A DNA stretch of 64,000 nucleotides from Massalongia carnosa. Lineage: Eukaryota. The stretch spans positions 1,860,001-1,924,000 of the forward strand of contig OZ287071.1 in NCBI GenBank assembly GCA_965645245.1, in the 5' to 3' direction. This document shows, in pieces, positions 30,643 through 57,256 of this stretch. The stretch's first letter is position 1; every line of letters begins with the position of its first letter. The notes under the pieces were generated by a model that had not been told where the DNA came from, ran no database searches, and was given only the letters and a program-made list of their open reading frames with translations. A program made the position numbers and the translations under genes.

Positions 30643-30764
30643 ATCGGTCCTCCTACTTCTACACCATCGGTCCTCCTCCTTCTACACCATCGGTCCTCCT
30701 CCTTCTACACCATCGGTCCTCCTCCTTCTATACCATCGGTCCTCCTTCTACACCATCGGTCCTC
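30643..30764. repeat. 23-bp tandem repeat ATCGGTCCTCCTCCTTCTACACC, ~5.4 copies
   Basis: Units start at 30643, 30666, 30689, 30712, 30735, 30755. Confidence 0.93.
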
Positions 30765-30941: not shown

Positions 30942-31101
30942 CTTCTAAGGGTTCAAGTCCCTTCATGCAGTCATCAGCTGGAAGAAGATGTGGACTAAAG
31001 GAGCCGCATCATCCCCCACCCGGGCACAATCGACACGCGTTCTAGCTCCTGAGAGTTCAAGTCTCCCCATGCAGTCATCAGCTGGGATCAACAGAACGCG
31101 T
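30942..31101 (+). ncRNA. Candidate structured RNA motif, copies 1 (30942-30984) and 2 (31047-31087)
   Basis: P1-[NNRG-TTCAAGT-CYNN]-N4-GCAGTCATCAGC-P1' with different but complementary P1 strands in each copy. Confidence 0.7.
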
Positions 31102-32281
31102 AAAGGCACCGGGGCGAATGCTGTCACCTCAAGAAAACTCCATCTCGGAGCAGAATAACAATATCCCATTGAGTTCATTGAATCAACCATCGACGCCTGA
31201 ACAACAAGAAACACAAGTACCGCAACTTTTGATACACTATAACTTTAACAATCAATTGAGCCTCTATTTCTCAGTCATTTGCGCTCCTCCAGAGTTAAAA
31301 CGCTCTCAGATTGAGTGTAGGAGAGCTCTAGCAAAGCTCCAGCAGAGATTTTCTGCTGGTCGCACGCGACCGACGTGATAAAGCGCGCTCTAGAAGTTGG
31401 AAAAAACAACAAATACCAACAACCTCACCAAAAATCGCTCTTTTTTCTTGTTTTCTTCTGTTCTGTTGTCGCATGACCTTCAATTATCACTATAAAAATT
31501 ATCTACAAAAATTATCTACTCTCGCGGGACTGTACAACAACTGTCGCGACGTCAGAGTCTTCTAAAGTTCATTCCTCATTTAAGGTTACGGGAACTTCCG
31601 CAAGCACAAATTTTCATAGCATATTTCACGTATAAATTTTGCACATTCCATTTTCGGCTTTATAGATCTTCGTTGAACGGCCGGTCAACAGATCACTGAA
31701 AAGAAGGGGAAAAACGTCTGGAATAGGATTATACCAAAGGTCCTGTTTCAGATTAATCAGAATAGGAAGTCTCCTATTGTCTTACATTGCATTAAAATTT
31801 ATCTTTATTGAAAAAAGCAAAAAAAAACTTTCATTATTTTCACCTATTGTAATGTCTGGTAAAGGGTTAAATAAGACTTACTGCCTTAGCGAGGAACGGT
31901 CTATTTTAACCCGATTAGGATTTATTTGACGCGTTATAGTCAAATAAATAGGGATAGGAAAGAAAGAGTCATTTGACCAGTAAACAAACAGGTGTAAATT
32001 CTATTCTGACTAGTACGTCCGGGGAAAGTCAGAATAAATTATTTGGTGGCGATAAAAGGGATATTGCAAAGGCAAAAACACTATGCTCAATCGAAGATTT
32101 AACCCGATAGGTCATAGACCAAATCGATTGATACCAACAACTCCTCCCCCAGGCCCCCCTCCACAACATCTATGGGTCCCCCCGAGTACTCCCCCGTGCC
32201 CCCCCCCGAACCGACTCCCCTACGCCATCTTCGGTAGCGATAATTGGGAGCAACCCCCTAACCGTAGAATCCACGGAGGCC

Positions 32282-33742
32282 ATGGACCAAACGCGAGAAT
32301 TTTCGTCCGCACCGTCCACACCCACCCCAAAAACGAAACCTTTTGTCGCGCCATCTGGTGAATTCAGTACCAATCTGCCCATGCCATCATTGAATTCTGA
32401 TATTCGACTGAGTCCACCAATTAAACGCAACAAAAGACGAACATTTGACGAACATTCGATTGAGAGTCAAGAAGTCATCAATCGATCAAAATCGATTCAA
32501 CTATTGAATACGGCAAAAAATGCATTATTAGAGTCATTCGTAATAGATCAAAACCACGAAACGGCTATGGTCATCGATCACGTCAATTCTCTACTGGCAA
32601 AGAAATCGATCAAGCCAAAAGCAACGTTAGAAATGATGGATTGGAAATTGAATAGGGTGCTAGAACAAACTAGCCAAATTCCAGAAACAAAGAGACAATC
32701 GGTGCATCCTATACAGACAAAATCGAAGGGAAATTCAAATGGAAATTCGAATTTGACTAAAAACGTCAACCCAGAAATTCGGAGCGAAACCGCCGGAGTC
32801 CCAGGGCCGCAGGTCAACGATACAGCTAGAACATGGAGCCAAATGCTCGGAAAAGCGACTGTCAATTCCGAAAATTGGACTACCGTTCCTCGATCCAAAA
32901 AAACAAACAAGAACAACAACAATAATTCGAATGCGAACAAATTCGATAATACTGACGATTTCAAGGCGATCAAATCTCGACGATTGATAATCACACCGAA
33001 AGCTCAAATCGGCGATATCGATTCACTGTTGCTTCGAAACCAAATCAATTCGCTTTTTAAAGACGCGAAATTGACTATCGTTGTTAACACGGTCGAAAAG
33101 TCCAAAACGGGTCAAAACATCGTTCTGACTACTAGTCCTGATAACACTGCTGAAGATTTATTGAACAATAAATCAATATGGGAGCATTTATTCGACCCAC
33201 GAACAGTTCGAAAGGACGAATCGTGGTTCAAAGTCGTCGCACACGGTGTAAATATTGCAACATTTGATGAAAACATGCAATATTTGCAAGACGAAATTCA
33301 AAAGTTCAATTCGAACATGCAATTATGCGATGTTCCCAGATGGCTAGCACGTGATCGTCATAACAAGATCAAATCATCCGTTGTTTTGACATTCAATGAT
33401 CGAAATATGGCCTTGAACGCGTTAAAAGGAGTCAATATCGCGGGCCGACATTGTGACACGGAAATATTTACCTCCGTTCGTCCAAACACACAATGCATTA
33501 ATTGTCAAAAATTTGGACACAAGCATTATCAATGCAAAAGTCAAGCGAAATGCAGCATATGTGCGCAAAACCATGAAACACGCAATCATGAATGCACAAC
33601 ATGCAAGTCAAAAATTGCTTGTGCACACGCCGTCGTCAAATGCGCGAATTGCAACAAGAATCATCAATCCAATGATGAAAATTGTGAAATGGTTATATCG
33701 TTAAATGTTCGAAAATCGACTGACGAATTAGCCGCTTTGTAA
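32282..33742 (+). CDS. LINE ORF1 (Gag-like, three C-terminal Cys/His knuckles)
   Basis: CINCQKFGHKHYQC, CSICAQNHETRNHEC, CANCNKNH..C. Confidence 0.92.
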   Translation: MDQTREFSSAPSTPTPKTKPFVAPSGEFSTNLPMPSLNSDIRLSPPIKRNKRRTFDEHSIESQEVINRSKSIQLLNTAKNALLESFVIDQNHETAMVIDHVNSLLAKKSIKPKATLEMMDWKLNRVLEQTSQIPETKRQSVHPIQTKSKGNSNGNSNLTKNVNPEIRSETAGVPGPQVNDTARTWSQMLGKATVNSENWTTVPRSKKTNKNNNNNSNANKFDNTDDFKAIKSRRLIITPKAQIGDIDSLLLRNQINSLFKDAKLTIVVNTVEKSKTGQNIVLTTSPDNTAEDLLNNKSIWEHLFDPRTVRKDESWFKVVAHGVNIATFDENMQYLQDEIQKFNSNMQLCDVPRWLARDRHNKIKSSVVLTFNDRNMALNALKGVNIAGRHCDTEIFTSVRPNTQCINCQKFGHKHYQCKSQAKCSICAQNHETRNHECTTCKSKIACAHAVVKCANCNKNHQSNDENCEMVISLNVRKSTDELAAL

Positions 33743-36700
33743 TGGCAGGACAGCATTCGTTGACAAACATCGAAAATACACAAAATGTTAAATTTATTCA
33801 ACATAATTGTGCAAAGTCAACGAATGCAATGATATCGTGTTTGGAATATGCTTTATCAAATCAAATTGATATTGTTTTGTTTCAGGAACCATGGACACGA
33901 GATCAAAAAACAATATCACATCCGTCATTTACATGTATTATGCCAAAAATAGCGACTTATCGCTCGAGAGTAGCTATATTTGTCACAAATGGCAATTCCA
34001 AACTGCAATGCACGCCTAGAACGGATCTTATTGACGATTCCGATATGCAAATTATTGAAATTACACTTGATGAAGTTCGAAAAGTGAAGATTTTCAATAT
34101 TTATAACGAAAAAAGTCAAAGTGATCGAGAAACATACACGATCGATCGACTTTTAATCCAATTACAACCAAAATCAACTGATCAATTCGTCATCTGTGGA
34201 GATTTCAATGCACATCATAACTGGTGGAATTCGAAAATTCAACAAGCAATTCGATCAGAAAATCTTGTCAAATGGTTGAAATTAAACAGGTGTAGCTTGA
34301 TAAACACACCTGACTTATGTACATACTACGCCCATTCTGGAAGTTCTTCATCTGTTATTGATTTAACTTTTGCAAATTCTAAAATCGAAAATGCAATTAC
34401 AAATTGGTCAATCGATGAAAACGCAGTCATAGGTTCTGATCATGAAGTCATCCGATTTGAACTAATCGCATCTTTCAAAAACTTGACGTCACATGCAACC
34501 TCATTATCGAATAAATACAATTGCAATAAAGCTGATTGGAATAAATTCGCGAAGTATCTAGACGAAAATTCAACCATCTACGAATCACAAGTTCAAAGTT
34601 TATTGAATAATCATCAATTCGACGAATCAGCGATATATTTGCAAAACGTTATCAAAAACGCGGCTGAAATGTTTATTCCGAAAACGAAAATTTGTGCAAA
34701 ATCGAAAAATTGGTGGTCGCATGATTTAACTGAACTTCGAAAAACCATGTGCAGACATCGTCGAGAATGGAAGAATTATCCGTCCGATTTTAGTCATCGG
34801 ACGTTTAAACATAGTCGAATCGAGTATTTTCATGCAATTCGAAAAGCAAAACAACAAACATGGTTGACTTTTCTTGAAAATGCAGCAAATAAAGATGTAT
34901 TTACCGCGTATAAATACACTACACCGCGAATATTCGAAAAAATACCGCCGATTCTACATGAAAACAAGCTAAATGTTCAGTTTGATGACAAATGCGATGC
35001 ATTTGTGTCAGCAATGTATACAAAAAACCCATTTATTGACGATAATGAGGAAGATTTATCAAATCAAGACAGCGTAAATGATGATAATTGGCCAGATTTG
35101 ACCGAAAACGAGTTGAAAAATGCGATTAGTTTATTTAATCCGAAGAAAGCATGTGGACCTGATGCAATCAATTTTACAATTGTTCAAAAATCGTTTCAAT
35201 CGTTGAAAAACGTGTTTTTCATGATTTATTCGAAATTCATTCGAATCGGTTATCACCCGTTATGCTGGCGGACAGGACTCGGTGCAGTTCTGAAAAAACC
35301 TAATAAATCAGACTATTCGTTTCCAAAATCATATCGAATTATCACATTATTAAATTGTCTTGGTAAAATTGCTGAGAAAATCGTTGCAAATCGACTAGCC
35401 TACTTCGGCGAAAATTCGAATTTACTCGATATCGAACAGATGGGCGGACGCAAAAATCATTCTGCAATTGACGCAGTAATGAACGTTGTTCATGATATTG
35501 AAATTGCAAATAGAAATAAAAACGTCTTATCATGTTTATTACTCGATGTCAAAGGCGCATTTGACTTTGTCTCGATTAATCAACTGCTAAATGTTATGAA
35601 AAAGCTGAAATTATCTCGCATAATAATTCAATGGGTCAAGCATTTCTTGACAAAGCGATCGATCAATTTGATATTTGATGAAAATTTAAGCAAAACATAT
35701 TATGTCGAATCAGGAATTCCACAAGGCTCACCAATCTCGCCTATTCTATTTCTGATTTACATTCGTCACTTGTTTCCGAAAATACGAATGAAATTCAATG
35801 CACATTCTCCCAGTTTTATTGACGATGTTGCAATATATGTCGAAAATAAAACTGCAAAACAGAATTGCAATGAAATCGAAATCATAGTCAAAACGGCCTT
35901 TGATTGGGCCGCATCGAATAATGTCAAATTTGATGACGATAAATCCGAGCTGATTCACTTCGAAAAGACAAGAAATGTATCGAAAGACACATTGGAATTA
36001 CCAAACGGGACAGTACTAGAACCGAAAAATGTAGTCAAATGGTTGGGCGTCTGGTTAGACCGAAAACTAAATTTCAAAAAACACGTCGAAACGCGGATCT
36101 CTTCTGCGAATCGATCGTTTTTTGCAATTCAGAATTTGATGAAATCCGAATGGGGTCTGAAACCGACCGCATGCAGACAGCTCTATATGTCATGCATTAT
36201 TCCTATTTCGGACTACGGCTCAGAAATTTGGTATAATGGTCAAAAGAAATATGAAAAACTATTTCAGAACCTACAAAATCGAATGATTCGAAAGATTTTA
36301 GGAACTTTCAAAACTACACCTGTTCAGGCGATGGAAATTGAATCACATGTTTTACCAGTTAAACTTCGATTATTAATGAAAAATCAAAAATACGCAATTC
36401 GATTATTGAAGATTGCCGAAAATAACCCTATTTGTCAAAGAATTCCAAACACATATTCGATAAAATTCGAAAATATCGGTTTTGACACAAGTTTATGGAA
36501 CAACAAATATGCCGAATGGAACGAAGACGAAAAACAAACAAATAAACGACATCCTAGTCAGCTTATTCGCGTTCTTCATTCCGTTTCCGATATAGTTCAC
36601 AAAACTGATGAATTTGAACAATCAAATCATTTTATTAAACCTTGGAAATCGCATTGCAAAATCAAATTTCAAATCGAAAATACAAAGGAATCTGCTAAAT

Positions 36701-37755
36701 CAAGTTATTATTCGACCTTATCCAAAATTAAATCAATGAACTCCGATAAATCCCGAGTTTTACTTTATACAGATGGATCGAAAATCGAATTTGCAACGTC
36801 TGCAGTCACATTTGCGCCAATTATAAGGAATTAGAGTAATATTATCAATAATTTTAATCGATTTATCGAAAAAGATTGTCTGATCAAGTATCATACGATT
36901 TCGAAAAGCTGGAAATTAAGCAAAAAGTCAAGCATTAAAAATGCCGAACTGCATGCGATTTTACAAGCAATGAAATGGGTCTATAAATTGTCGAATACTA
37001 ATATTTTATCGAACTTAGAAAAAACGATTCGGATTTTTTCTGATAGTATAAACGCGATAAACGAAATTCAGAACTTGACAAATCATATTTTCGCCAGACA
37101 AATTCGAAAGCTCGCAAAAATCTTATTTGAAAGCAATTTTCAGGTGATTTTGCAATGGGTTCCGAGTCATTCAAATATTACCGAAAACGAAATTGCAGAC
37201 AAAATAGCAAAGACGGGCCATAATCAAATCCTAGTCGAGTCCTCGGCGATAACATTTGATTATGTAAAAGATCAAATAAATCAAAATATGCTAACCACAT
37301 GGACGAATCAATGGCAACAATGCAAATCAAAAGGCAAATACAACGAGAAATTCGAAATGAAACCTGGCATATCGAGATTTTATTATTTATCAAACAACTG
37401 TTCCAAATTGATATTTGCTACTATTATGCAATTAAAATTCGGACACGGCTATTTTCGATCTTATTTAAAGCGATTGAAAGATTATAATTCGTCAAAATGC
37501 ACAAATCGATGCAATCAACGACAAACGCCAGAACACTTGTTATTGAATTGCATTCACTATTTCGATGAAATTCAAAACATGAAACAAAATATCGATACTA
37601 CTATCAACTTGAATATGTTGTTTAATACAAAAATCGGAAATGACATTTTGATTAAATTCATTGTCAATAACAAAATCGCGACAAGAAAATGGATACTAGG
37701 TCAGCTTGATGACGAGATTTTCGAAACTGGAGGTTGGGGAGAGATCGAACAGTAA
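33742..37755 (+). pseudogene. LINE ORF2 APE endonuclease-RT-RNase H-CCHC (1337 codons) with a single TGG>TAG stop at 36832
   Basis: QEPW, GDFNAHH, GSDH (APE); GIPQGSPISPILF, FIDD (RT); YTDGSK, AEL, SDS, QWVPSH (RNase H); QTPEHLLLNC. Sister copies read TGG at the stop position. Confidence 0.93.
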
Positions 37756-38033
37756 AATCAGAAACGATTTATGCTGATACATTCACGAACTTACAAAGAC
37801 AAATTTTAAAATCGATATTCTTCGATTACTATAGGTTGTTACTAACACGGAGTAAAAATGGGGAAAAATTGACAATACATAGATGGGTTATAAAGGGTTG
37901 ATTTATTTGTAACAAAGAAACATATCCTAAAATAGTTTAGTGTCATAACCTTAGGTTGAATACACTTAATGAATAAATAAATAAAAAAAAACAATATCCC
38001 ATTTAATAGGCCCGGCCTGTTAAATAAAATCGA

Positions 38034-38203
38034 GGAAAACATAGAGTCACAAAACACATAGTCATCAATCACACGTTGTACAAAGCACACAGTTACAAAG
38101 CACACAGTCACAAACACACAGTCAAAAAACACACAGTCACAAAACACACAGTCACAAAACACACAGTCACAAAACACACAGTCACAAAAAACACAATCAC
38201 AAA
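38034..38203. repeat. 15-bp tandem repeat (ACAAAACACACAGTC)n, ~11 copies
   Basis: Directly visible; lies in the LINE B leader. Confidence 0.9.
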
Positions 38204-38282
38204 TCAATAACACGTCCCTGTGAAGGGGGTTCTGCGGGGGCTCGTTAAGACAGATCTTCACCCCGTTAATATCGGCGTACAT

Positions 38283-38527
38283 ATTTTTAGAGGTTCAAGT
38301 CCTTTCTAGCAGTCATCAGCTGAAAATGATGCATTTTGACACGGGCATGGTGTGGATTTGACACGGGTAGACCTCGATGGATCACAAAACGAATGAAAAG
38401 AGTTCAGCGGAACTTCGTTAATATTGTTCTCGAAGACCTCGTTAATAAGATTTTCATAGACCTCGTTAACAACGTTCAGTCATACTCTTAAAGGTTCAAG
38501 TCCTTTCATGCAGTCATCGGCTGAGAG
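38283..38527 (+). ncRNA. Candidate structured RNA motif, copies 3 (38283-38327) and 4 (38485-38527)
   Basis: Same core and spacing as copies 1-2; P1 = ATTTTTA/TGAAAAT and CTCTTA/TGAGAG. Confidence 0.7.
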
Positions 38528-40910
38528 CTAAAGACGTACGACACGGGTCAGCTATGTCTGTCACACGGGTCTCCTTCGTCTACAACACGGAGCCCTCCGG
38601 CTGAAAGAAATAAAACATATAGACACATAGTGTAGGGTCACACCCTACACGATACAAGGGATTTGGGTTATGAAAACCATCCGATTGATGGCTACCGTGA
38701 GCAACACGGCCCGAACCGGAGTCGTACCGGGGATGGTGGAGGCAACCTAGTCATCAAATAGGACACCCTTGGGACAAGAAGAGGGCAATATACGAGGAAC
38801 CCGTTAATTGATAACAGTCTAGGCCCTGAGCTAATAGACGAATTTCAAACGAGCACCCCTCCGAGTTGTCCTCGACTCGTTTTGGTTAGTAGGGACGGAA
38901 AATCGATACTATACTGCCTGGTCAGGAGCATAGTGGTCGAAATCCCTGCGAGACATGGTCGGTTCATAAACGGGAGACCTTTATGAATAACGCGAAGTGG
39001 GCGTAAAAAACCCGTGAGGCGTGGTATGCAATGGCGGCCACCGTACGGAGACCGTCTGCATAGCCCGAGAGGACAGTATGCGCATGTCGGTGTATATAGA
39101 GCAGGGAATGTTTATCTCGCTCGTAACGAGACCCCGTCGGTTCGCCGGCGCATGGGCTACGGCTAGACTCGCCCTTGATGTATGCTTAAGGAGTAAACTG
39201 GGTTTGACCTGGGCGAAAGGGACGTCGTTCACCCCAATCGTAGAATTCATCAATAATCTTGGGCCGAAAAACGCACCAGTGAGATGAACGAAAACTGGGA
39301 TAGAGACTTCACGAAGGAGAGAGATGTCAACTCTATTTTATCATTCTTAGCCCTCCCCAAATGGAATCTCCGGGGCTCTCGTCAGTAGGACTTATAGAAA
39401 AATCGCCTGTACTTGACGAGCCTATGGATCAATCACATGAATATTCGTCCGCCCCGACTACGCCGACCCCAAAAGCAACCAAATTCCCATCTGGACAATT
39501 TACTACCAATCTACCCATGCCATCGTTAAATTCTAATATAGAATTAAGAAACGTAACAAACGAAAAACATTCGACGAACGAGTAGAGGAAAGCCAAGAAG
39601 CAATCAATCGAGCACAATCGATTGGATTACTCAAAACGGCTAAAACCGCGTTATTGAAGTCATTTGTCTTAGATCAAAATCCAGAAACAGCAATAGTCAT
39701 TGATAATGTCAATTCCTTATTGACAAAAAAATCAATTAATATCAAAACAACACTAGACATGATGAATTGGAAATTGGACAAGGTAATTGATCAGACTAGT
39801 AATCGAACCTCAGAAACAACGCGAAAATCGACTCGGGTTCAACAAGTCAATATGACTGAAAATCCAAATAAAGTCGTCAACACGAACGCACGAAAGGAAA
39901 CCGCCGGGGTTACGAGTACAAAGGTCAATAACACGCCTCCATCCTGGAGTCAAATGCTTGGAAAAGCAACTGCGAATTCCGAAAATTGGACCACTGTTTC
40001 CAGATCGAAAAATTCGAGTCAAACCTCGAACAAACTCGACAAAACCGACGAATTAAATGCAATCAAACTCATACGACTGATAATTACACCAAAAATTCAA
40101 ATCGGCGATATCGAATCATTGAAACTTCGAGATCAAATCAACGCGCAATTCAGCAACGCGAAGTTAGATATCGTAATCAACACGGTCGAAAAATCGAAAA
40201 CCGGTCAGAATATCGTTCTCACTACTAGTTCGAAAAACACTGCTGCAGAATTGTTGGAAAACAAATCTATATGGGAACATATGTTCGATGCACAAAGAAT
40301 TCGAAAAGACGAATCCTGGTTTAAAGTGATCGCACATGGAGTAAATATTGCAACGTTTGATCAAAATATGCAATTTTTGCAAAATGAAATCCAGAAATTC
40401 AACCTTAACATGGAATTGTGCGATTTATCCAGATGGCTAGCGCGAGATCGCGAAAACAAAGTCAATTCTTCGGTCGTTTTGACTTTTAACGATCGAAATC
40501 AGGCCTTAAACGCGTTAAAAGGCGTAAATATCGCGGGAAAACACTGTGACACGGAAATATTTACATCCGTTCGTCCGAATACACAATGTATTAATTGTCA
40601 AAAATTCGGACACAAGCATTATCAGTGTCGAAACAAATCAAAATGCAATATTTGTGCACAAAATCATGAAACACGTAATCATGAATGCATAACATGCAAA
40701 TCGAAAACTGCGTGTGCACACGTTGTTGTGAAATGTGCAAACTGCAATAAAAATCATCAATCAAATGATGAACATTGTGAAATGTTTACTGCATTAAATC
40801 CACGAAAATCGGCTGACGAATTATCCGCCTTATAATGGCAGGACAGCATTCGTTGGCAAATATAGAAAATACTCACAATGTCAAATTTATTCAACACAAC
40901 TGTGGAAGGT

Positions 40911-41560
40911 TTTTTTATTTTTATTTTTTATTCATTAAGTGTATTCAACCTAAGGTTATGACACTAAACTATTTTAAGATATGTTTCTATATTACAAATA
41001 AATCAACCCTTTATAACCCATCTATGTATTGTCAATTTTTCCCCATTTTTACTCCGTGTTAGTAACAACCTATAGTAATCGAAGAATATCGATTTTAAAA
41101 TTTGTCTTTGTAAGTTCGTGAATGTTTCAGCATAAATCGTTTCTGATTTTACTGTTCGATCTCTCCCCAACCTCCAGTTTCGAAAATCTCGTCATCAAGC
41201 TGACCTAGTATCCATTTTCTTGTCGCGATTTTGTTATTGACAATGAATTTAATCAAAATGTCATTTCCGATTTTTGTATTAAACAACATATTCAAGTTGA
41301 TGGTAGTATCGATATTTTGTTTCATGTTTTGAATTTCATCGAAATAGTGAATGCAATTCAATAACAAGTGTTCTGGCGTTTGTCGTTGATTGCATCGATT
41401 TGTGCATTTTGACGAATTATAATCTTTGAATCGCTGTAAATAAGATCGAAAATAGCCGCATCCGAATTTTAATTGCATAATAGTAGCAAATATCAATTTG
41501 GAACAGTTGTTTGATAAATAATAAAATCTCGATATGCCAGGTTTCATTTCGAATTTCTCG
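40911..41560 (-). mobile_element. 5'-truncated LINE copy (650 bp) inserted into LINE B ORF2
   Basis: 13-bp TSD AACTGTGGAAGGT (40898-40910, 41561-41573); T-rich tail on the left; ORF2 C-terminus 41149-41547. Confidence 0.95.
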
Positions 41561-44500
41561 AACTGTGGAAGGTCAACGAATGCAATGATTTCGTGTTTGG
41601 AATATGCTTTATCAAATCAAATCGATATTGTTTTGTTTCAGGAACCATGGACACGAGATCAAAAAACAATATCACATCCGTCATTTACATGCATTATGCC
41701 GAAAACAGCGACTTATCGCTCGAGAGTAGCTATATTTGTCACAAAATGCAATCCCAAACTGCAATGCACGCCTAGAACGGATCTGATTGACGATTCCGAT
41801 ATGCAAATTATTGAAATTACAATTGATGAAATTCGAAAAGTGCAGATTTTCAATATTTATAACGAAAAAAGTCAAAATGATCGAGAAACATACACGATCG
41901 ATCGACTTTTAATCAAATATCAACCTACATCAACTAATCAATTCATCATATGTGGAGATTTCAATGCACATCATAACTGGTGGAATTCGAAAATTCAACA
42001 CGCAATTCGATCAGAAAATTTAGTCAAATGGTTGAAAATAAACAAATGTAGTTTGATAAACACACCTGATTTATGCACATTCTACGCCCATTCTGGAAGT
42101 TCATCATCTGTTATTGATTTAACATTTGCAAATTCCAAAATCGAAAATGCAATTACAAACTGGGCAATCGATGAAAACGCAGTCACAGGTTCAGATCATG
42201 AAGTTATCCGATTTGAACTAATCGCATCTTTCAAGAATTTGACGTCACATGCAACCGCATTATCGAATAAATACAATTGTAATAAAGCCGATTGGAATAA
42301 ATTCGCGAAGTTTCTAGACGAAAATTCAATCAACTACGAATCAAAAGTTCAAAGTTTATTGAATAATCATCAATTCGACGAATCAGCGATACATTTGCAA
42401 AAAATTATCAAAAACGCGGCTGAAATGTTTATTCCGAAAACAAAAATATGTGCAAAATCGAAAAATTGGTGGTCGCAAGATTTAACCGAACTTCGAAAAA
42501 TCATGTGCAGGCATCGTCGAGAATGGAAGAATTATCCGTCCGATTTTAGTCATCGGACGTTTAAACATAGTCGAATTGAGTATTTTCATGCAATTCGAAA
42601 AGCAAAACAACAAACCTGGTTGACTTTTCTAGAAAATCCAGCGAATAAAGACGTGTTTACCGCGTATAAATATACTAAACCGCGCATATTCGAAAAAATA
42701 CCGCCGATTCTACATGAAAATAAGCTTAATGTTCAGTTTGATGACAAATGCGATGCGTTTGTGTCAGCAATGTACACAAAAAAACCATTTATAGACGATA
42801 ATGTCGAAGATTTACCAAATCAAGACAGCGAAAATGATGATAATTGGCCAGATTTGACCGAAAACGAGCTGCAAAATGCGATTAATTTATTTAATCCGAA
42901 GAAAGCATGTGGACCTGATGCAATCAATTTTACAATTGTTCAAAAATCGTTTCAATCGTTAAAAAACGTGTTTTTCATGATTTATTCGAAATTCATTCGA
43001 ATCGGTTATCACCCGTTATGCTGGCGAACAGGACTCGGTGCAGTTCTGAAAAAACTTAATAAATCAGACTATTCGCTACCAAAATCATATCGAATTATCA
43101 CATCACTAAATTGTCTTGGTAAAATTGCTGAGAAAATCGTTGCAAATCGACTAGCCTACTTCGGCGAAAATTCGAATTTACTAGATATCGAACAGATGGG
43201 CGGACGCAAAAATCATTCTGCAATTGACGCAGTAATGAACGTCGTTCATGATATCGAAATTGCGAATCGAAATAAAAGCGTTTTATCCTGTTTATTACTC
43301 GATGTCAAAGGCGCATTTGACTTTTTCTCGATTAATCAACTGCTAAATGTCATGAAAAAGCTGAAATTATCTCGCATATTAATTCAATGGGTCAAGCATT
43401 TCATGATAAAACGATCGATCAATTTGATATTCGATGAAAACAAAAGCAAAACATATTATGTCGAATCAGGAATTCCACAAGGTTCACCAATCTCGCCTAT
43501 TCGATTTCTGATTTACATTCGTCACTTGTTTCCTCATTGAACTTAAACATTGGATCAAGCCCACCAATCAAACGAAATAAAAGACGCACATTTGACGAAC
43601 ATTTGAGAGATAGCCAAGAAGCGATCAATCGGGCAAATTCAATTGAGCTTCTAAAGTCGGCCAAAAAAGCATTATTGCAATCATTTGGACTGGACCAAAA
43701 TCCACAAACGGCTATCGTAATTGACAACGTTAATTCGTTGATTTCGAAAAAATCAATCAATTTACAAACATCCTTAGATATGATTAACTATAAAATGGGC
43801 ATAGTACTTGATCAAACTAGTCATCTTTCCTCAAAAACGTCACAACAACAAACGACTCCACTACAGAATGGTCCAAAAATCCAAAAACCTGTTGTTAAAT
43901 TGAACGAAAATTCAATTATCGAAAATCAGACCATTCGCAAAGGAGCTACCGGGGTCTCTGGTAACAATGTTAGCACAACCGGTACATGGAGTCAAATGCT
44001 TGGAAAAGCAACCGAAAACTCCGAAAATTGGACTACTATTCAAAGGAAAAGTTCGAATAATAATTCGAACAAAGTCGATCGATTTGATGCAATCAAGGCC
44101 AGACGACTCGTGATTTCACCGAAAAATCCTGACGCTCAAATCGACTCTATGAAGTTGCGTGATCAAATTAACGCGCTATTAAAAAACGCAAATTTAAACA
44201 TCATCGTCAATACTGTTGAAAAGTCCAAAACCGGTCAGAATATAGTTCTCACCACTAGCCCTGACAACAATGCCGAAGAATTGTTGAAAAATAAATCTTC
44301 ATGGGAACACATTTTCGAATCACAAAGAATTCGAAAAGACGAATCCTGGTTTAAAGTCATAGCACACGGAGTAAATATCTCGTTATTCGATAATAACATG
44401 CAATATTTGCAAACCGAAATCGAAAAATACAATTCGAATATGCAACTATGCGATTTACCAAGATGGCTTGCTCGGGATCGTCAAAACAAAGTCACGTCGT

Positions 44501-47500: not shown

Positions 47501-48162
47501 AAAAATCAAAAATACGCAATTCGATTATTGAAGATTGCCGAAAATAATCCTATTTGTCAAAGAATTCCCAGTACCTATTCTGTGAAATTCGAAAACATCG
47601 GTTTTGACACTAGTTTATGGAACAACAGATATGCTGAATGGAACGAAGACGAGAAAAAATCGAGTAAACCTCATCCTAGTCAGCTTATCCGTATTCTTCA
47701 TTCCGTTTCGGATATAGTTCACAAAACTGATGAATTCGAATCAGTAAATAATTTCATCAAACCATGGAAGCCGTCTTGTAAAATCAAGTTCCAAATCGAA
47801 AGATCCAAAGAAACAGCAAAGTCAAGTTATTATTCGACTTTATCAAAAATCCAATCAATAAACGCTGTTGAAATAGGTATATGACTATGGCTATATGGCT
47901 ATGATAAAAATGGTATGTATGACCGTGATGTTAAGGATGAAGAGTGCTGTTCAGCAGTCTTTGTCCCATAACTGGTCACCCTCTGCTAAGCGAGGTGATA
48001 AGATTATCTGAGCTGATCTTATCTAATCTCTAGGCTAAGCCTAATACGGCATCTACGGTTTCTGTAGGTGCTCTGTCCATCTTGGGCAGTCGTAGGTGCT
48101 ATGTTCATTGAACTGGTAGGTGTTCACTGTACTGGTAGGAGTTGAATATTCAACACCCCCCC

Positions 48163-51100
48163 TCAAGTCCTGCCAGTACTTGTTTTGCCTGTAGGTTCAA
48201 CCGTGGTTGAATTGTTATCCATGTGTAATTGTCTGACAAACGAGAAGAACTTAACATGAGTGAGAGGTTTTGTCAGTCCGTCTGCTATCATGTCTTCTGT
48301 TGAGACATAGGTGAGGTCGATTCGTCCCTCGAGGACCTCGTTCCGGATGAAGTGATGCTGAATGTCTATGTGCTTAGTCCTAGCGTGTAAGACAGGATTG
48401 TTGGCAAGGGCTATGGCGCTTTGATTGTCGTTTTTTAATGCGATGGTGCCTTCTCCTCTTAACACATTTACCGTTGGGGATTCGTTGTCTATAGTCATTA
48501 ATCCAAGTTCGGTCATCAGTAAACGTAGCCATGTGGCCTCCTTTGCTGCTAAGGTAAGTGCCATATACTCTGCTTCAGTTGATGATAATGCGACGGTTGT
48601 TTGTCTTTTGGAGCACCAGCTTATGGGTCCATTGTTTAACATGAAGACATAACCAGACGTTGACTTGCGTTCTTCCTTGTCTCCGGCCCAGTCGGAATCG
48701 GAATACCCTTGTATTGTCAGGTCTCCTCCGCCGAAGGTGATACCTCTGTCCTTGGTAGCGCTAAGATACCTGAGAATATGTTTGGCCGCTTCCATGTGTG
48801 TCCTGCTTGGATTTTTCGAATGTCGACTGACTGCAGATGTTGCAAAAGCAATGTCGGGTCTTGTTTCTATCATCGCGAACATGATGGATCCAACAATGGT
48901 TTGATATTGTCTAATGTCTTTGTCGGAGGCTTGGGATTCATTGGTGAAAAGACATTCTTCTCGCATGGGAGTATTGGCTGTTTTTGCATTTTGCATATGA
49001 AATCTTTCTAGCACTTTCTCAATATAGGTTGGTTGAGATAGCTTGATGATCCTTTTGACTCGATCTCGTTCGACCTTGAGACCTAAGTAGTAACTGATCG
49101 GTCCCATGTCTACCATTTTGAATGCTAGCTTGAGTTGTCTCTTGACTTCGGTGATCATTTGGGAGCCCTTTGGACCTATGATGTTCAGATCATCAACGAA
49201 AAAAGTAACGATGGGACCTTTTATGCCTTGAGGTGTGGCGAAGATGCTGTGGTCTGCGTGAAGCTTCTCGAGTCCTAATTTTTGCAGCAGAAAGGTAGAA
49301 AGTCGTTCATACCAGAGGCGAGGAGACTGTTTTAGACCATACAGGGCCTTGTTCAGTTTACATATCATGCCGGGTACGTCATAACCTTTTGGCATGTGAA
49401 CATAGATGAGTTGATCAATGAAGCCATTGAGGAAAGCTGTCACTATATCGAGTTGTTCGATATCCAAGTCATGATAAGCAGCTAATGCGAATATCAGACG
49501 AAAGGCCATCGGCTTGACCACAGAAGCGAAGGTTTGATCGAAGTCTACTCCGTATTGTTGTAGATATCCCTTGACGACCCATCTAGCTTTGAAGCGGGTG
49601 ATGTTTCCATTCACATCTTTCTTTAGCTTGTATACCCACTTACCGCTTAATGCTATGTGTCCAAGTTTCATGGTTTCGATAGGTACAGTGTCCCAGGTGT
49701 TGTTTTCCATGAGGCTCTTGTGCTCTTCGTTCATTGCCAGGCTCCATTCGTTTGAATAGCTGGAGTTCATTGCTTGATGATATGTCTGTGGCTCAGCTAT
49801 GTCTGATTGAACGAACGCATCAAGATCGTTTAGGTTTGCTGCTCCCTCTTTTTCCATTTCCTTGGCTAGAAGTATGAGTGGATCTTCTTCATCTTTGTCT
49901 ACCATTGTGAAGATATGCTCTGGTTCAGTCAGTGCTTCATTAGACAGAAGGGCCAGTACTTGTGCTACATGAGCATGTTTCCTGGGCCTACCTCTTCCTC
50001 GTTTTGAAGCTTCAGTGACTTCGGGATTTAACCGTGGTTGAGTTCTGGAAGAGTTGGAAATGGCTTTAGGCAGATTCTCATCTTCTTCAACAATCATCAC
50101 GGAATCGTATGTAGGCAGATCAGTCTCATTCTTGTCTATAGCATCTTCATGAATTCGTAGATCTTTGACTCGAATGACCTTGTAGTCTTTTTCCAGGAAG
50201 ACGCGATAGATAGTGTTTCCGTCATATCCACACAAGATTCCTTTCTGAGCTCTTGGGGCGAATTTTGCAGACTTGCTGTTCATTCCCTTTCGCTCTTGTT
50301 CATGAATCAATGCATAAACGGTGGATCCAAGTACTCTCAAGTGATCTAGCTTGGGTGGTTTGTTCTCAAAGACTTCATAGGGGGTTTTACCTCCCAAGGC
50401 GTTTGTTGGTCTAACGTTTTTGGTGTGAACCATGGCTAAAACGACTTCTGTTCACAGATAATCTGGAATTCCTCCACCAATAACTGTGCATCTTGTCATG
50501 TCCATGATGGTCCTACCCATTCGTTCTGCGACACCGTTTTCTTCTTGAGAATATGTGGCGGAAGGTTCATATATTATACCTTGTTGAAGGAACCAGTTAT
50601 CTGACTTGTGACTGCGTAGTTCTGTGCCGAAGTCAGTGCGAAAGATGCTTATTGGTTTCGCTTTCCCAGATTTGTTTTGAGCCATGTTGTTGTATGTCAA
50701 CAAGTGATCAAACCATTCACTTTTTTTGTGTCCCGTATAAACATGAGTGTATCTGCTGGCGTCACAGGTGAAGGTGAAGAAGTAGAGCTCTTCAAGGAGC
50801 CCTACTGGTTTGATTGGTCCTACCATGTCGGAGTTTATTTTCTGGAAGATCTCCGTGGCTTTCTCTTGTGGAGTTCGATTGTATATCTTGGTGGCTTTCC
50901 CCATCTCGCAAGCATGACAGAACCAACCCTGATTGATATCGTCAACAAACGTTATGTTCAGTGTTTTCAGGTACTTTCGGCATGTCGGTATGTTGAGATG
51001 ACCAAGACGTGCATGCCAAGTTGTGAGCTTGAATTTTATGAAAGTTTGATGAATAGCGACGTTTTCTTCTTGATAAGTGTTCTCGTCAATCTTGTTCAGA

Positions 51101-52482
51101 TGCATCCTCATATCTAGAGTGTCTATGGTTTGTAGCATGAAGTTGCTGTTAACTCTGGGTACATAACATATGATTTTCTTGGTAGGTTCAAGGAACAGTC
51201 TCCAGTTCGAGTTATCATAGAAAATAGAATGCTGATTGAGTAGTCCAAGGCTGACGAGGCTCACAGGGCATTGAGGAATGTAAAGTACATTGTTGAGGGT
51301 CAAAACTGAACAAGGTGATCCGTCCTCTGATGTCAAAGTTTTTTGAATAGTCCCTCTTCCTGGCGATGTGCCTGTGGACGTTGATCCTGCTAGTCCTGTA
51401 GGATAGTCTATGTAGTCAGTGAAAGAGGGTCTGTGATTGCATACATGCATATCTGCCGCGCTGTCCAATAGCCAAGAACTTCTACTGAGACTTGTCATAG
51501 TCATGACCTTCTGTAGTCTAACGGTCATGACCTTTGTGAGTCAACTGCTCACAGTTGGTAGGTCTGTTGATACGGTGGATGTCGGGACCGTTTCCGTTTT
51601 GGAATCAGAGGTCCTTGTTCCTCTTGTCTTCATAGACTCCAAGGGGTATGTTTGACGTCTCAGATTTGGGTATTTCTGAAAGCATTTCTCTAGTAAGTGG
51701 GAAGTCCGCCCTCTTCGGACACATTCTGGAAAGGTGCAAGTTCCTGGTGGTGCTTTTCCGTTGTTTCCGGCAACGCCAGTTCTGGAAGCATTGATGTGGA
51801 GTGCCTTCCTCTCTGGCCTGCTGATGGAGTAAGCGGTGATTGATCTGCATGCAGTCGTGAGGTTCGATCTGCCAGTAATCCAATCCCGACGAAGTTGAGC
51901 TATAAGGGGTAGATAGTCCTCGATGACGTTTCGTAACAAGTATCCTTGAAGGACTTGTTCTGCTCCCTTTGCGTTCAGTTCCGAGTCCTCATCTATCATG
52001 CCTTTTATGGAGTTCAATGCTTTTTCATACTCAGCGCAGTATTGAGTGACATTCTCATAATTCGTCATCTTCTTGGAGTTCATGTTGTAGAGAATGTCGG
52101 TGATGCTCATGGGTGCGATGTCCTGAAACTTGATCTTCAAGATTCTCCACATATCGCCAGCTGTGCGGGTTGATATCAGAGTGTGATGCTGTGGGGCGAC
52201 ACGCATTTGAATGATTCCTTCGGCCTTGAGCATGAGAAGGCTCTGCTTTTCAACGTCAGCTCCGACTTTAGTAAAGATTTGTTCATCCTTGAGATTCGCC
52301 TCGGTGAAGCCCATCTCCAAGTACTTGCGCTTGACTGTCTGATACGTGATAGCGGCAATGTTGTCTTGAATAGCAAAGATACAATTCTTTTGCTTCAGAA
52401 TGCCCTCGGTGTGCACAACCCATTGTGGATAATCTTCCGCTTTTTCTAACAACTGAATCACGTCTTGAGTAGAACTAGACAT
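48163..52482 (-). pseudogene. Copia Gag-PR-IN-RT-RNase H in one frame with two in-frame TGA codons (51541, 50452)
   Basis: WLLDSAA (PR), WHARLGH..CHAC, ENGVAER (IN), FVDD (RT), YSDSDWAG (RNase H). All three ORF pieces are in frame; 50452 replaces the conserved LW. Confidence 0.9.
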
Positions 52483-52673
52483 CTTGTGAATGAAGAGTAG
52501 AAAGCTTGTGAATGAAGAACTTGATTTTTATATCTTAGAGTTCTATAATACAATGTGTGAGGGATAAAGTAGGAGGATGATGTGTTGACTTCTCCTTATG
52601 AGAAAAACAAGCAGCATTCCTTTTACTTATCATCATGCACCTCATTGTCCTAGCAATATTTGCTCCAAGCCCA

Positions 52674-52924
52674 TATCCTAGTGAAAATTTGTCTAACACT
52701 TGGTGGCTTGATTGTAGTCTGATGAACTTTGATCTATCATCGGCTTGTATCCTAGTGAACTTTTACCTATCACTTGGTGGCTTGATTGTAACCTGATGAA
52801 CTTTGATCTATCATCGGCTTCTATCCTAGTGAAATTTTATCTATCACTTGGTGGCTTGATTGTAACCTGATGAACTTTGACCTATCATCGGCTTGTATCC
52901 TAGTGAACTTTTATCTATCACTTG
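52674..52924. repeat. 74-bp tandem repeat, ~3.4 copies, in the Copia 5' leader
   Basis: tatcctagtgaa units start at 52674, 52748, 52822, 52896. Confidence 0.9.
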
Positions 52925-55900
52925 ACGACAAGGAAAAACAGAGTCTGAACAGGGATATACCGTTTTCATTTAACAGGCACAGGGCCTGTTAAATGAAACA
53001 GGGTTCTTCCACTTTCACTACTCCCATGTTTTCCCTTCTGTGGCGTTCAAGAAATCTCTTTTGGCAAGGAAGGACTACTTTTCCAAGATGGGTCTGTATC
53101 TCTTCCTGCTCCCTGAACCTAGTTGACATAGTGGTATCCTTTGGTCTTTAGAGGTTCATCGTTCCTTCTAATCTCCAGGCATACACGCTATTCAAAGGTT
53201 TGTTGAGATTACCTTGGGCCTTTGGGCTAACGGCCTGTCTGGTGTCCAAGGTCTTTGTAGGTATTGTGCATTTGAATTTCGTGTAATGATGCGTGTACGT
53301 AGTTCACGATAGATAATCGTGGTGAGGTAAATTCTAAGTACGCAAAGAAATTTTTTAGTATTGCATCTAAGGGGGTTTTTTTTTTGTAAACGATGATGCT
53401 TAGCTATTATGCACTGTAGTGCTGCGGATGAGCAATTCGATTCGTGACTGAATCGATAGCGCCCTTACGGGCTCATAACCTGTTGAAATAGGTATATGAC
53501 TATGGCTATATGGCTATGATAAAAATGGTATGTATGACCGTGATGTTAAGGATGAAGAGTGCTGTTCAGCAGTCTTTGTCCCATAACTGGTCACCCTCTG
53601 CTAAGCGAGGTGATAAGATTATCTGAGCTGATCTTATCTAATCTCTAGGCTAAGCCTAATACGGCATCTACGGTTTCTGTAGGTGCTCTGTCCATCTTGG
53701 GCAGTCGTAGGTGCTATGTTCATTGAACTGGTAGGTGTTCACTGTACTGGTAGGAGTTGAATATTCAACAAACGCCGATAAATCGCGAATGTTACTCTAT
53801 ACCGATGGATCAAAAACCGAGTTTTCAACTTCCGCTGTCACATTTGCACCAATTATGTGAAATTGGAACAATTTCACCGATAACTTCAATCGTTTTATCG
53901 AAAAAGATTGTCTCCTCAAACATCATACGATTTCGAAAAGCTGGAAATTAAACAAACAGTCAAGCGTTAAAAACGCTGAACTCTATGCGATACTACAAGC
54001 AATAAAATGGGCATACAAATTGACAATTGCGAATATTCTCTTCAATTTGGAAAAAACGATTTGGATTTTTTCCGATAGCATAAACGCGATAAACGAAATT
54101 CAGAACTTGACAAATCATACTTACGCAAAACAAATTCGAAAATTCTCGAAATGCTTATTCGGAAACAATTATCAGGTGGTTCTACAATGGATTCCTAGTC
54201 ATTCGAAAATCGTCGAAAATGAAATTGCAGATAAAGCAGCAAAAGCGGGACATAGTCGAATCCTAGTCGAGTCTTCGATAATAACATTTGATTATGTAAA
54301 GGGTCAAATAAATCGAAATATGTTAGCCACATGGGAGAATCAATGGCAACAATGCAAGTCAAAAGGCAAATACTATGAGAAATTCGAAATGCAGCCGGGC
54401 AAATCGAGTTTTTATTATCTGTCGAATAATTGTTCGAAATTAATATTTGCGACTATTATGCAAATAAAATTCGGACACGGTTATTTTCGATCATATCTGC
54501 ACCGATTGAAAGATTATAATTCGTCAAAATGCACAGGGCGCTGCAACGAACGTCAAACGCCAGAACACTTATTGATGAATTGCATACATTATTCAAATGA
54601 AATCCTAAACATGAAACAAAATATGGATACCACAATTACTTTAAAAATGTTGTTTAATACTAGGATCGGAAATAATATTTTAATTAAATTTATTGTTGAT
54701 AACAAAATCGCGACTAGAAAATGGATGCTAGGTTAGCTGGATGACGAAAATATCGAAACGAGAGGTTGGGGAGAGATCGAACAGTAAAATTAGAAATGAT
54801 TTATGCTGGAATATTTACGAGCTTTACAAAAACAAATTGTAAAATCGATATTTGGATTACTAAAGGTTATTACTAACACGGAGTAAAAACGGGGCAATAT
54901 TGACGATAGATAGTTGGGTTCTAAAGGGTTGATTTATTTGTAAAATAAAACCATATCTTAAAATAGTTTAGTGTCATAACCTTAGGTTGAATACACTTAA
55001 TGAATAAATAAAAAAAAAAAATAAAAATAAAAAAAGTCACTTGTTTCCGAAAATACGAATGAAATTTAATGCACATTCTCCCAGTTTTATTGACGATATT
55101 GCAATATATGTCGAAAATAAAACTGCAAAACAAAATTGCAAAGAAATCGAAATCATAGTCAAAACAGCTTTTGATTGGGCCGCATCGAATAATGTCTTTG
55201 ATGACGATAAATCCGAGCTGATTAACTTCGAAAAGACAAGAAATGTATCGAAAGACACATTGGAATTACCAAACGGGACAGTACTAGAACCGAAAAATGT
55301 AGTCAAATGGTTGGGCGTCTGGTTAGACCGGAAACTGAATTTCAAAAAACACGTCGAAACGCGAATCTCTTCTGCGAATCGATCGTTTTTTGCAATTCAG
55401 AATTTGATGAAATTCGAATGGGGTCTGAAACCGACCGCATGCAGACAGCTCTATTTGTCATGCATTATTCCTATTTCGGACTATGGCTCAGAAATTTGGT
55501 ATAATGGTCAAAAGAAATATGAAAAACTATTTCAGAACCTACAAAATCGAATGATTCGAAAGATTTTAGGAACTTTCAAAACCACACCTATTCAGGCGAT
55601 GGAAATTGAATCACATGTTTTACCAGTTAAACTTCGATTATTAATGAAAAATCAAAAATACGCAATTCGATTATTGAAGATTGCCGAAAATAACCCTATT
55701 CGTCAAAGAATTCCAAATACATATTCGATAAAATTCGAAAACATCGGTTTTGACACTAGTTTATGGAACAACAAATATGCAGAATGGAACGAAGACGAAA
55801 AACAAACAAATAAACGACATCCTAGTCAGCTCATTCGCGTTCTTCATTCCGTTTCCGACATAGTTCACAAAACTGATGAGTTTGAACAATCAAATCATTT

Positions 55901-57256
55901 TATTAAACCTTGGAAATCGCCGTGCAAAATCGAATTTCAAATCGAAAATACAAAGGAATCTGCTAAATCAAGTTATTATTCGACCTTATCCAAAATTCAA
56001 TCAATGAACTCCGATAAATCCCGAGTTTTACTTTATACGGATGGATCAAAAATCGAATTTGTAACGTCTGCAGTTACATTTGCGCCAATTATGAGGAATT
56101 GGAGTAGTATTATCAATAATTTTGATCGATTTATCGAAAAAGATTGTCTGATCAAGTATCATACGATTTCGAAAAGCTGGAAATTAAGCAAACAGTCAAG
56201 CATTAAAAATGCTGAACTGCATGCAACTTTACAAGCAATGAAATGGGTCTATAAATTGTCTAATACTAATATTTTATTGAACTTGGAAAAAACGATTTGG
56301 ATTTTTTCTGATAGTATAAACGCGATAAACGAAATTCATAACTCGACAAATCATATTTTCGCAAGACAAATTCGAAAGCTCGCAAAACGCTTATTTGAAA
56401 GCAATTATCAGGTGATTTTGCAATGGGTTCCGAGTCATTCAAATATTACCGAAAACGAAATTGCAGACAAAATAGCAAAGACGGGCCATAATCAAATCCT
56501 AGTCGAGTCCTCGGCTATAACATTTGATTATGTAAAAGATCAAATAAATCAAAATATGCTAACCACATGGACGAATCAATGACAACAATGCAAATCAAAA
56601 GGCAAATACTACGAGAAATTGGAAATGAAACCTGGCATATCGAGATTTTATTATTTATCAAACAACTGTTCCAAATTGATATTTGCTACTATTATGCAAT
56701 TAAAATTCGGACACGGCTATTTTCGATCATATTTACATCGATTGAAAGATTATAATTCGTCAAAATGCTCAAATCGATGCAATCAACGACAAACGCCAGA
56801 ACACTTGTTATTGAATTGCATTCACTATTTCGATGAAATTCAAAACATGAAACAAACCATCGATACTACGATCAACTTGAATATGTTGTTTAATAATAAA
56901 ATCGGAAATGACATTTTGATTAAATTCATTGTCAATAACAAAATCGCGACTAGAAAATGGATACTAGGTCAGCTTGATGACGATATTTTCGAAACTGGAG
57001 GTTGGGGAGAGATCGAACAGTAAAATCAGAAACGATTTATGCTGAAACAGTTACGAACTTACAAAGATAAATTGTAAAATCGATATTTTTCGATTACTAT
57101 AGGTTGTTACTAACACGGAGTAAAAATGGGGAAAAATTGACGATACATAGATGGGTTATAAAGGGTTTATTTATTTGTAATATAGAAACATATCCTAAAA
57201 TAGTTTAGTGTCATAACCTTAGGTTGAATACACTTAATGAATAAATAAAAAAAAAA

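Follow-up and report, generated by a model that had tools for sequence, protein, structure and literature searches.

A predicted multi-domain RNA fold in a non-coding module upstream of a Tad1-type LINE in Massalongia carnosa

Introduction

Why should some 700 nucleotides (nt) of non-coding DNA in front of a decayed retrotransposon be tiled with stems and capped by tetraloops? The question is raised by a 64,000-nt stretch of DNA from Massalongia carnosa (assembly GCA_965645245.1, contig OZ287071.1, positions 1,860,001 to 1,924,000 of the forward strand), referred to here as the window, in whose coordinates all positions are given. Two copies of a long interspersed nuclear element (LINE), LINE A and LINE B, follow one another in this window, and a preliminary description made from the letters alone had drawn attention to a densely structured region upstream of the first open reading frame (ORF1) of LINE B. 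Its architecture was likened to that of large catalytic or structural RNAs or internal ribosome entry sites (IRESs), which was thought unexpected in the leader of a fungal Tad1 LINE. The comparisons described here uphold a large, multi-branched, tetraloop-capped structural RNA, predicted on the coding strand upstream of LINE B ORF1, but not the view that it is simply a LINE leader.

A composite element with a non-coding 5' part has been described in Magnaporthe grisea/oryzae. According to the available part of that report, MINE consists of a full-length, 1.1-kb non-coding WEIRD RNA and a 5'-truncated MGL LINE, of which individual copies retain 230-5461 nt, and in the LINE the switch sites follow ..GCC, among them TTGGCC and TGGGCC (PMC2104539). 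The same part states that no solo WEIRD copy or gene was found in Magnaporthe, reports no WEIRD-like sequence outside it, and gives a host housekeeping non-coding RNA as the origin that the authors favoured (PMC2104539).

Results

Compensatory changes support a conserved RNA fold

Comparative evidence indicates that 38627-39336 on the + strand encodes a conserved RNA fold about 730 nt long, in which about 29 helices make up four domains (A to D). A 30-nt motif present upstream of LINE A and again upstream of LINE B served as the anchor of a metagenome scan for homologues, and 38627-39353 was matched at 67-76% identity in eight of nine metagenome loci. One locus (L003) holds the motif only and another (L004) duplicates L001, so that seven independent homologues remained. 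Together with the window copy they form an alignment (A1) of 8 rows and 897 columns with a mean column identity of 66%, the rows representing four lineages that are 58-69% identical to one another. A scan of prokaryote genomes with the core motif gave 65 loci, all of them chance matches of 23-31 nt, and a scan of viral contigs gave no match.

The compensatory changes that the preliminary description had proposed to look for are abundant. RNAalifold predicted 182 base pairs on A1, and 84 of these are changed on both sides, compared with 12-22 when the 3' partners were slid by 1-3 columns. Standard pairs fill 94.5% of 1428 cells (34.3-45.4% after sliding), the covariation score reaches 0.385 (0.057-0.119), and none of 500 column shuffles reached the observed value on any of five measures. 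The structure was predicted from the same alignment, so these controls favour it; the margin is nevertheless very large. Double changes are present in 23 of the 31 tabulated helices, and each of the eight sequences keeps 86-98% of the pairs, with 89-98% kept in the copies that are joined to a LINE.

The same alignment identifies the strand. Read on the + strand, the predicted pairs hold 179 G·U cells and 32 A·C cells, and eight pairs consist of G·U throughout the eight sequences, which on the opposite strand would be invariant A·C mismatches. The alignment folding energy is -335 for the + strand and -290 for the minus strand. The RNA therefore corresponds to the LINE-sense strand.

Protein coding was rejected on either strand. 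Over domains C and D, the sole part tested in this way, every frame is interrupted in at least one copy; variable columns are distributed over the three codon phases as 17/24/16, which shows no codon periodicity, and the indels, not being multiples of three, do not preserve a frame. Two local ORFs have no match in Pfam. A minus-strand ORF of 74-103 amino acids (38981-39253 in the window) overlies the four-way junction of domain C, with counterparts in L002, L006, L008 and L009 that have the motif WPPL.TTPHRV in common, and a protein search found it predicted by gene callers in at least five database entries. By the same coding tests it is spurious as a gene, and it recurs because the RNA core is so conserved.

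Folding energy is a poor guide to this structure

The GC-richer non-coding island of the preliminary description is real, with a GC content of 0.46-0.52 across 38200-39400 compared with 0.30-0.39 in the LINE sequence on both sides. A folding z-score against shuffles, which had also been suggested as a check, proved misleading. For 751 nt of the + strand the minimum free energy is -233.9, against -225.6 +/- 8.2 for shuffles (z = -1.02), and four of 20 shuffles were equal or better; taken alone, this result would have wrongly rejected a real structure. The minus strand scores better (z = -2.53), an advantage that we attribute to composition and do not count as evidence on the strand, since the covariation and G·U data place the RNA on the + strand. 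Scored separately on the + strand with 60-200 dinucleotide shuffles, domain A reaches z = -2.90, domain B -3.21, the four-way core -1.47 and domain C -0.28. The evidence for the structure is thus covariation and not folding energy, and the z-score is a poor filter where a real structure stands at z = -1.

Anatomy of the fold

The predicted domains and their main parts are as follows.

38627-38771 (+), domain A, helices 1-8: a hairpin at 38630-38650, then a closed three-way junction; z = -2.90
38655-38660/38766-38771 (+), closing helix of domain A, surrounding a 10-bp helix and the three-way junction
38773-38881 (+), domain B, helix 9: variable in length and content, with words like those of the monomers described below
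38882-39298 (+), domain C: closed by a long-range 6-bp helix, TTGGTT/AAACyr (38882-38887/39293-39298)
38889-38949 (+), long hairpin of domain C
38952-39088 (+), near-invariant four-way junction of domain C, with GAGA-capped arms
39089-39186 (+), helix of domain C with a lineage-specific insertion, capped by UUCG in the window and by GAAA in L008
39300-39353 (+), domain D: a hairpin at 39300-39336 (helices 29-30) and a single-stranded tail

Two single strands, GCCCGAA and AAAyAGGrCA, are conserved in domain A. Domain B is closed by an 11-bp helix with double changes in 10 of its pairs, and in L001 and L008 it carries an extra hairpin of the T-arm-like kind described below. The four-way junction of domain C holds two conserved GAGA tetraloops, a third GAGA next to a variable hairpin, a 3x3 GAA/GGG internal loop and four GAGAC-like words. 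Elsewhere in domain C there are an invariant single strand, ATGCTTAAGGAGTAAAC / AUGCUUAAGGAGUAAAC, and three further helices. The tail of domain D ends in ...TTCTTAGCC(C) in the window and in ...yTTGGC(C) in the homologues.

Most of the stems that had been picked out by eye recur in A1. The hairpin at 38630-38650 is kept, with four of its eight pairs changed on both sides, as are TTGATGGCTA/TAGTCATCAA around CCGTG/CACGG and CCGG/CCGG (helices 5-7), GTAGGGA/TCCCTGC around the TCGATACTAT hairpin (helices 13 and 15), and the GG-GAGA-CC and CC-GAGA-GG caps. GACATG/CATGTC turns out to belong to a nearly invariant 8-bp helix that closes the four-way junction. Other proposals fared less well. What had been read as a CC-GTGA-GG hairpin is, in the consensus, the 3' strand of a helix with the 3x3 internal loop and has no tetraloop, and CGAGTTG/CGACTCG is specific to the window copy, within the variable domain. 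The CGTCGG-TTCG-CCGGCG hairpin stands as a feature of the window copy but lies in the lineage-specific insertion, and the same place in L008 is occupied by TGCC-GAAA-GGCA.

The fold is part of a discrete 1.36-kb module

The fold makes up the 3' two-thirds of a longer non-coding unit, which lies between the two LINEs.

37992-39353 (+), whole non-coding 5' module, 1362 nt, preceded by the A9 tail of LINE A and followed by LINE B
38036-38203 (+), tandem 15-mers AAAACACACAGTCAC, 11.2 copies (Tandem Repeats Finder), near the 5' end of the module
38241-38620 (+), two promoter-like monomers (38241-38323 and 38438-38524), 76% alike
38289-38293/38301-38305 and 38490-38494/38502-38506 (+), stems of T-arm-like hairpins with the loop TTCAAGT, followed by GCAGTCATCrGCTG
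32282-33742, 33742-36834 and 36970-37755, ORF1, ORF2 and RNase H ORF of LINE A, which is intact
37983-37991, A9 tail at the 3' end of LINE A
39354-40910 (+), LINE B: 70 nt, then the ORF1 ATG at 39424; ORF1 is decayed

The borders of the module recur in contigs from other sequencing runs; these contig figures, for borders and joints alike, hold among the matches listed. Matches begin at 37990, the sequence before being unlike (runs X1, X2 and X7), and stop at 39353, the sequence after being unlike (X2 and X7); contigs of four runs support the two borders. In an 8-kb contig 38157-39353 is kept at about 98%, and the next 565 nt fall below 80%. Homology of all the metagenome copies likewise stops at 39353. 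The fold therefore belongs to a discrete unit, 37992-39353. In one run 6125 contig pieces matched 37600-40000, a 2.4-kb stretch that holds the module, a depth that is not to be read as a copy number.

In the 5' third, the copy number of the 15-mers differs between contigs, with joints that skip 36, 72 or 85 nt, and the words CCTCGTTAA and GACACGGG recur in the promoter-like monomers. The T-arm-like hairpin, with its 5-bp covarying stem and UUCAAGU loop, is present two to four times per module. Over 23 instances in the window and the homologous loci the loop is invariant, and 113 of 115 stem cells are paired, by several pair types. The loop fits the T-loop/B-box consensus GGTTCRANNCC. ARAGORN found no tRNA, no A box was recognised by eye in the monomers, and no T-run terminator stands at the module end in most copies. 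A short interspersed nuclear element (SINE) derived from a tRNA, or a gene with an RNA polymerase III leader promoter, is accordingly not indicated: of the features expected, only the B-box-like T-arm was recognised.

Covariance models of domain A (R2) and of the four-way core (R1) score the window copy at 115 and 137.6 bits, respectively. Each matches once in the 64 kb, so that no second copy of the fold was detected in the window, including the stretch upstream of LINE A. That stretch carries 5.4 tandem 23-mers (30643-30764) and two T-arm-like hairpins (about 30947-30983 and 31051-31087), each followed by GCAGTCATCAGCTG; the following 1.1 kb or so, up to 32275, has no similarity to the LINE B module or to models R1 and R2. 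It may represent a second, unrelated type of 5' module. Among differences between the copies of other runs and 37600-39300, C>T and G>A dominate (at least 13 C>T and at least 7 G>A places in X1), a bias that would fit mutation akin to repeat-induced point mutation in an ascomycete.

A fixed module end is joined to LINE sequence at different points

On the evidence of the sequences at its joints, the module has a fixed 3' end and is directly joined to Tad1/I-type LINE sequence that starts at different points. All copies end in ...yTTGGC(C), with TTAGCC(C) in the window, and 0-2 odd bases follow. In the window the LINE sequence starts 70 nt before the ORF1 ATG. In L007 it leads straight into two CCHC knuckles of ORF1, and L006, L009 and L002 enter the reverse transcriptase at residues equivalent to 692, 721 and 723 of LINE A ORF2; at the L002 junction the TTGGC of the module overlaps the LINE codons TGG GCT. 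The contigs of L005 and L008 end before the LINE side, which leaves six copies with readable downstream sequence. Five of the six are joined to a LINE, and in four (L007, L002, L006 and L009) the module stands before a truncated LINE only and not before a complete ORF1. The sixth, L001, has no detectable LINE in the 1.1 kb downstream.

A native LINE 5' untranslated region is a possible, if unlikely, source of this arrangement. In that case the fold would work in cis, whether as an IRES-like or other translation element or as an integration-controlling protein-binding RNA like that of the R2 element, and the joints would reflect internal deletion, or splicing from a donor at the module end to cryptic acceptors inside the LINE. 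The module of the window does stop 70 nt before an ORF1 start codon, a contig of another organism (X7) has a module 98% identical to it followed by ORF1-like sequence at the right distance, and T-arm monomers are also found upstream of LINE A. However, intact LINE A lacks the fold, of which the two models find the one copy in 64 kb, and the module ends identically at joints to ORF1, late ORF1 and reverse transcriptase, which would not be expected from random deletion. Four of the six readable copies could not translate a complete ORF1, and L001 shows no LINE. As for splicing, the MINE switch sites, in the available part of the report, are not preceded by AG (PMC2104539).

Site-specific LINEs also give a fixed upstream boundary with variable 5' truncation, so that the module might be the upstream half of a specific insertion target, with LINEs inserting, often 5'-truncated, directly after ...TTGGC, like the R2 element in 28S rDNA. 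The order of elements in the window (module-like region, LINE A, module, LINE B) would suit such a target. We nonetheless regard this as very improbable, as no downstream target half was seen to follow a LINE 3' end: among the matches listed, 3' ends of the LINE A type continue into poly(A) and diverse flanks, and the 3' end of LINE B leads into another LINE piece. The same LINE family has also inserted at other places, where the duplications are of an ordinary length of 12-13 nt (40899-40910 and 41561-41572).

The joined copies also bear on an origin by capture, as of U6 by L1, in which the module would be a host housekeeping non-coding RNA, the covariation would have arisen in its host gene, and copies linked to LINEs would be pseudogenes. 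Such an origin was favoured for WEIRD by its authors in the available part of their report (PMC2104539), and L001 has no LINE downstream. Yet five of the six readable copies are LINE-joined and keep 89-98% of the pairs, the module has tandem repeats and monomers like those of transposable elements, and its 2.4-kb surroundings drew the 6125 contig pieces of one run, a depth and not a copy number. No solo WEIRD gene in Magnaporthe is recorded in the available part of the report (PMC2104539). We give this origin little credence.

The fold matches no catalogued RNA family

Rfam 15 gave no match at the gathering score in the 64-kb window, and at E values up to 10 only SpR10 appeared, at 24.8 bits (gathering score 50). 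In the seven homologue loci, the search returned a single 21-nt pseudoknot match (E 7.3) outside the fold. The families covered take in HDV-like, hammerhead, twister and GIR1 ribozymes, rRNA, snRNA and IRESs, besides the introns and other RNAs named below. The fold thus matches no catalogued RNA family, in keeping with the earlier failure to recognise group I or group II cores by eye. Group I and group II introns, RNase P/MRP and telomerase RNA were all dropped, as none gave a model match and no template-like or domain-V-like element was seen by eye. A catalytic or IRES role is at most putative.

Given its size, near-invariant four-way junction, conserved GNRA caps and invariant single strands, all typical of large ribozymes, the RNA could be self-processing, cleaving at its own 3' boundary to leave a defined (possibly 2',3'-cyclic phosphate) end that is re-joined to LINE RNA by ligation or a template jump. 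The fixed 3' end is compatible with self-cleavage, and its determinant would have to lie upstream, because the downstream sequence varies. U6/L1 chimeras in mammals, moreover, arise via a cyclic-phosphate end. Against this, there is no ribozyme family match even at E values up to 10, and the end could just as well be the work of a cellular nuclease or a terminator, so that a ribozyme appears improbable.

Genomic setting

Pfam scans and self-comparison show the window to be a transposon nest with two Gypsy elements, one Copia element, Tc1/mariner remnants and several copies of one LINE encoding an apurinic/apyrimidinic endonuclease, a reverse transcriptase and RNase H, with a Gag-like ORF1. The LINE A ORF1 protein (ORF1p) has three CCHC-type knuckles. 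An MKT1-type host gene at 3987-4730, encoding an MKT1_N-domain protein, is 56-71% identical to proteins of lichen-forming Lecanoromycetes, so that the DNA most likely comes from a lichen mycobiont or one of its near relatives. A second host gene, at 8280-8909 (-), is of the thioredoxin/protein disulphide isomerase (PDI) type. Several records of lichen fungi join the two families in a single fused gene prediction, which suggests a conserved neighbourhood.

LINE B aligns with LINE A from 39418 to 40910 (32276-33817 in LINE A), with 75% identity in the ORF1 region; its ORF2 region (41561-43533 and 55036-57259) is 94-96% identical. This hybrid make-up (39418-43533 against 32276-35777) suggests recombination or template switching between LINE subfamilies, as judged from the identities. 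Three later insertions split LINE B: an inverted 650-nt LINE 3' piece, the 5'-truncated LINE C and the Copia element. The first (40899-41572) is itself 5'-truncated and 98% identical to 37344-37994 of LINE A; its poly(A) appears as a T run, its insertion point is exactly the ORF1/ORF2 boundary of LINE B, and a 12-13-nt duplication, AACTGTGGAAGG, lies on both sides (40899-40910 and 41561-41572). It is a textbook target-primed insertion. LINE C, 83-84% identical to LINE A, lies inside the reverse transcriptase of LINE B with a 13-nt overlap in LINE A coordinates, and is in turn split by the minus-strand Copia element (about 47864-53764). LINE B restarts at 55036 and stops at 57259, and three more LINE pieces, in both orientations, follow up to 64000.

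Discussion

The fixed 3' end of the module and the variable 5' ends of the LINE sequences joined to it match the published anatomy of MINE, and for this reason we consider the module to be a WEIRD-like portable leader RNA, joined at a free 3' end to LINE RNA or cDNA, with a fold selected for a role in the LINE ribonucleoprotein. We put the probability of this reading at roughly 0.55. The same two features imply an RNA with a free 3' end that becomes joined to LINE RNA or cDNA. As we picture it, the module would exist as such an RNA and would join full-length or 5'-shortened LINE RNA or cDNA, either by RNA ligation or by template jumping of the reverse transcriptase, for which a short GGC(C) microhomology would act as a guide. 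The join would supply the LINE piece with a portable, transcribed leader, and selection would keep the fold since the leader must act as RNA. The likeliest role would be a putative assembly with the ORF1p of the LINE, through its CCHC knuckles, or with its ORF2 protein, by which the RNA might be captured, stabilised and copied. By analogy, this would be akin to a retroviral packaging leader or to the 5' protein-binding RNA of the R2 element, and the exposed, recurring GAGAC/GGAGA loops are candidate sites of protein contact. The fold is conserved with compensatory changes in LINE-joined copies, which argues that it serves the element and is not a decaying pseudogene of a host RNA.

Several observations weigh against this interpretation. 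Neither the whole fold nor domain C folds better than its shuffles. The alignment has only eight sequences from four lineages, and five of its rows belong to one clade. L001, LINE-free as far as it can be followed, may be a solo copy. The entry points in L002, L006 and L009 lie within about 30 codons of each other and therefore perhaps do not reflect three fully independent events. In the window itself the composite is broken by nested insertions and both of its ends abut other LINE pieces, while the metagenome contigs are too short to reach a target-site duplication of the whole composite. Three published WEIRD/MINE primers have no match in the module at up to 5 mismatches, a comparison of little power. 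The protein-binding role is purely putative, and the free 1.36-kb transcript is a prediction; none of the 18 runs listed is recorded as RNA, so they have no bearing on expression.

A broader proposal, which we hold to be clearly unlikely, would make the module a member of a new, widespread class of ribozyme-like RNAs of about 700 nt that act as detachable 5' modules of fungal LINEs. Each would set its own 3' end, by self-cleavage or with the help of a tRNA-processing enzyme, and be re-attached to LINE RNA or cDNA in every generation, so that the promoter-bearing leader and the coding body would travel as two RNAs; the unexplained WEIRD RNA of Magnaporthe would be one member.

We found no description in the literature of structured RNA in fungal LINE leaders. 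One screen for fungal structured RNAs, by the available part of its report, deliberately avoided transposable elements (PMC8216456), and a second does not mention them in the passages searched (PMC5640933). An RNA class resident in transposable elements would therefore have been missed. The composite architecture was already known. What appears to be new is the large conserved fold and its occurrence in more than one species, along with the T-arm monomers. To our knowledge, large RNA folds with this much covariation are rare in eukaryotes, and most of the known ones are ribozymes or ribonucleoprotein cores. If the portable-leader interpretation holds, it would give a concrete, testable answer to the nature of the WEIRD half of MINE, hint at how Tad1-type LINEs gain and swap 5' leaders, and offer a tractable RNA of about 730 nt for structural work.

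Comparison with known systems

Retroviral 5' leaders and packaging signals have multiple hairpins with GGAG-type G-rich loops and belong to elements with a CCHC-knuckle Gag protein. The module, which is not homologous, would resemble them in its way of working only. Mimics of the tRNA T-arm are known from the RNA polymerase III B box of tRNA-derived SINEs, the yeast RPR1 leader and the 'box B' recruitment hairpin of bromoviruses; the module has the 5-bp covarying stem and the invariant UUCAAGU loop but differs in having no cloverleaf. The monomers have an analogue in those of mouse L1. The 5' RNA of the R2 element contains a protein-binding pseudoknot and a ribozyme like that of hepatitis delta virus (HDV). 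The likeness here would be that of a conserved 5' RNA structure in an element without long terminal repeats, working either with a protein that the element itself encodes or by way of 5'-end processing, as in R2. In contrast to R2, the fold gives no match to an HDV-like or any other ribozyme and can be separated from its LINE; it is also far larger and is absent from the sister LINE A.

For chimeras of U6 small nuclear RNA and LINE-1 in mammals, RNA ligation is named as a mechanism in the available part of the report (10.1101/2025.02.02.635956). There too, variably 5'-truncated LINE copies are attached, by template switching or RNA ligation, to a small structured RNA whose 3' end is defined. 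U6, however, is a known host RNA, about 106 nt long and with genes of its own, whereas the module is about 1.36 kb long, resembles a transposable element, belongs to no known family and possibly depends on the LINE for its spread.

The module differs from WEIRD in having relatives in several lineages, and the available part of the MINE report makes no mention of conserved secondary structure, T-arm hairpins or monomers in WEIRD (PMC2104539). As far as that part goes, the likeness to MINE extends over several features. Both have a non-coding 5' part of about 1.1-1.4 kb that is always full to its 3' end and contains no conserved ORF; the direct fusion partner of this part is a Tad1-clade LINE with many different points of 5' truncation; the part is mostly or only found in such fusions; and the GCC before the MINE switch sites in the LINE resembles the TTGGC(C) with which the module described here ends.

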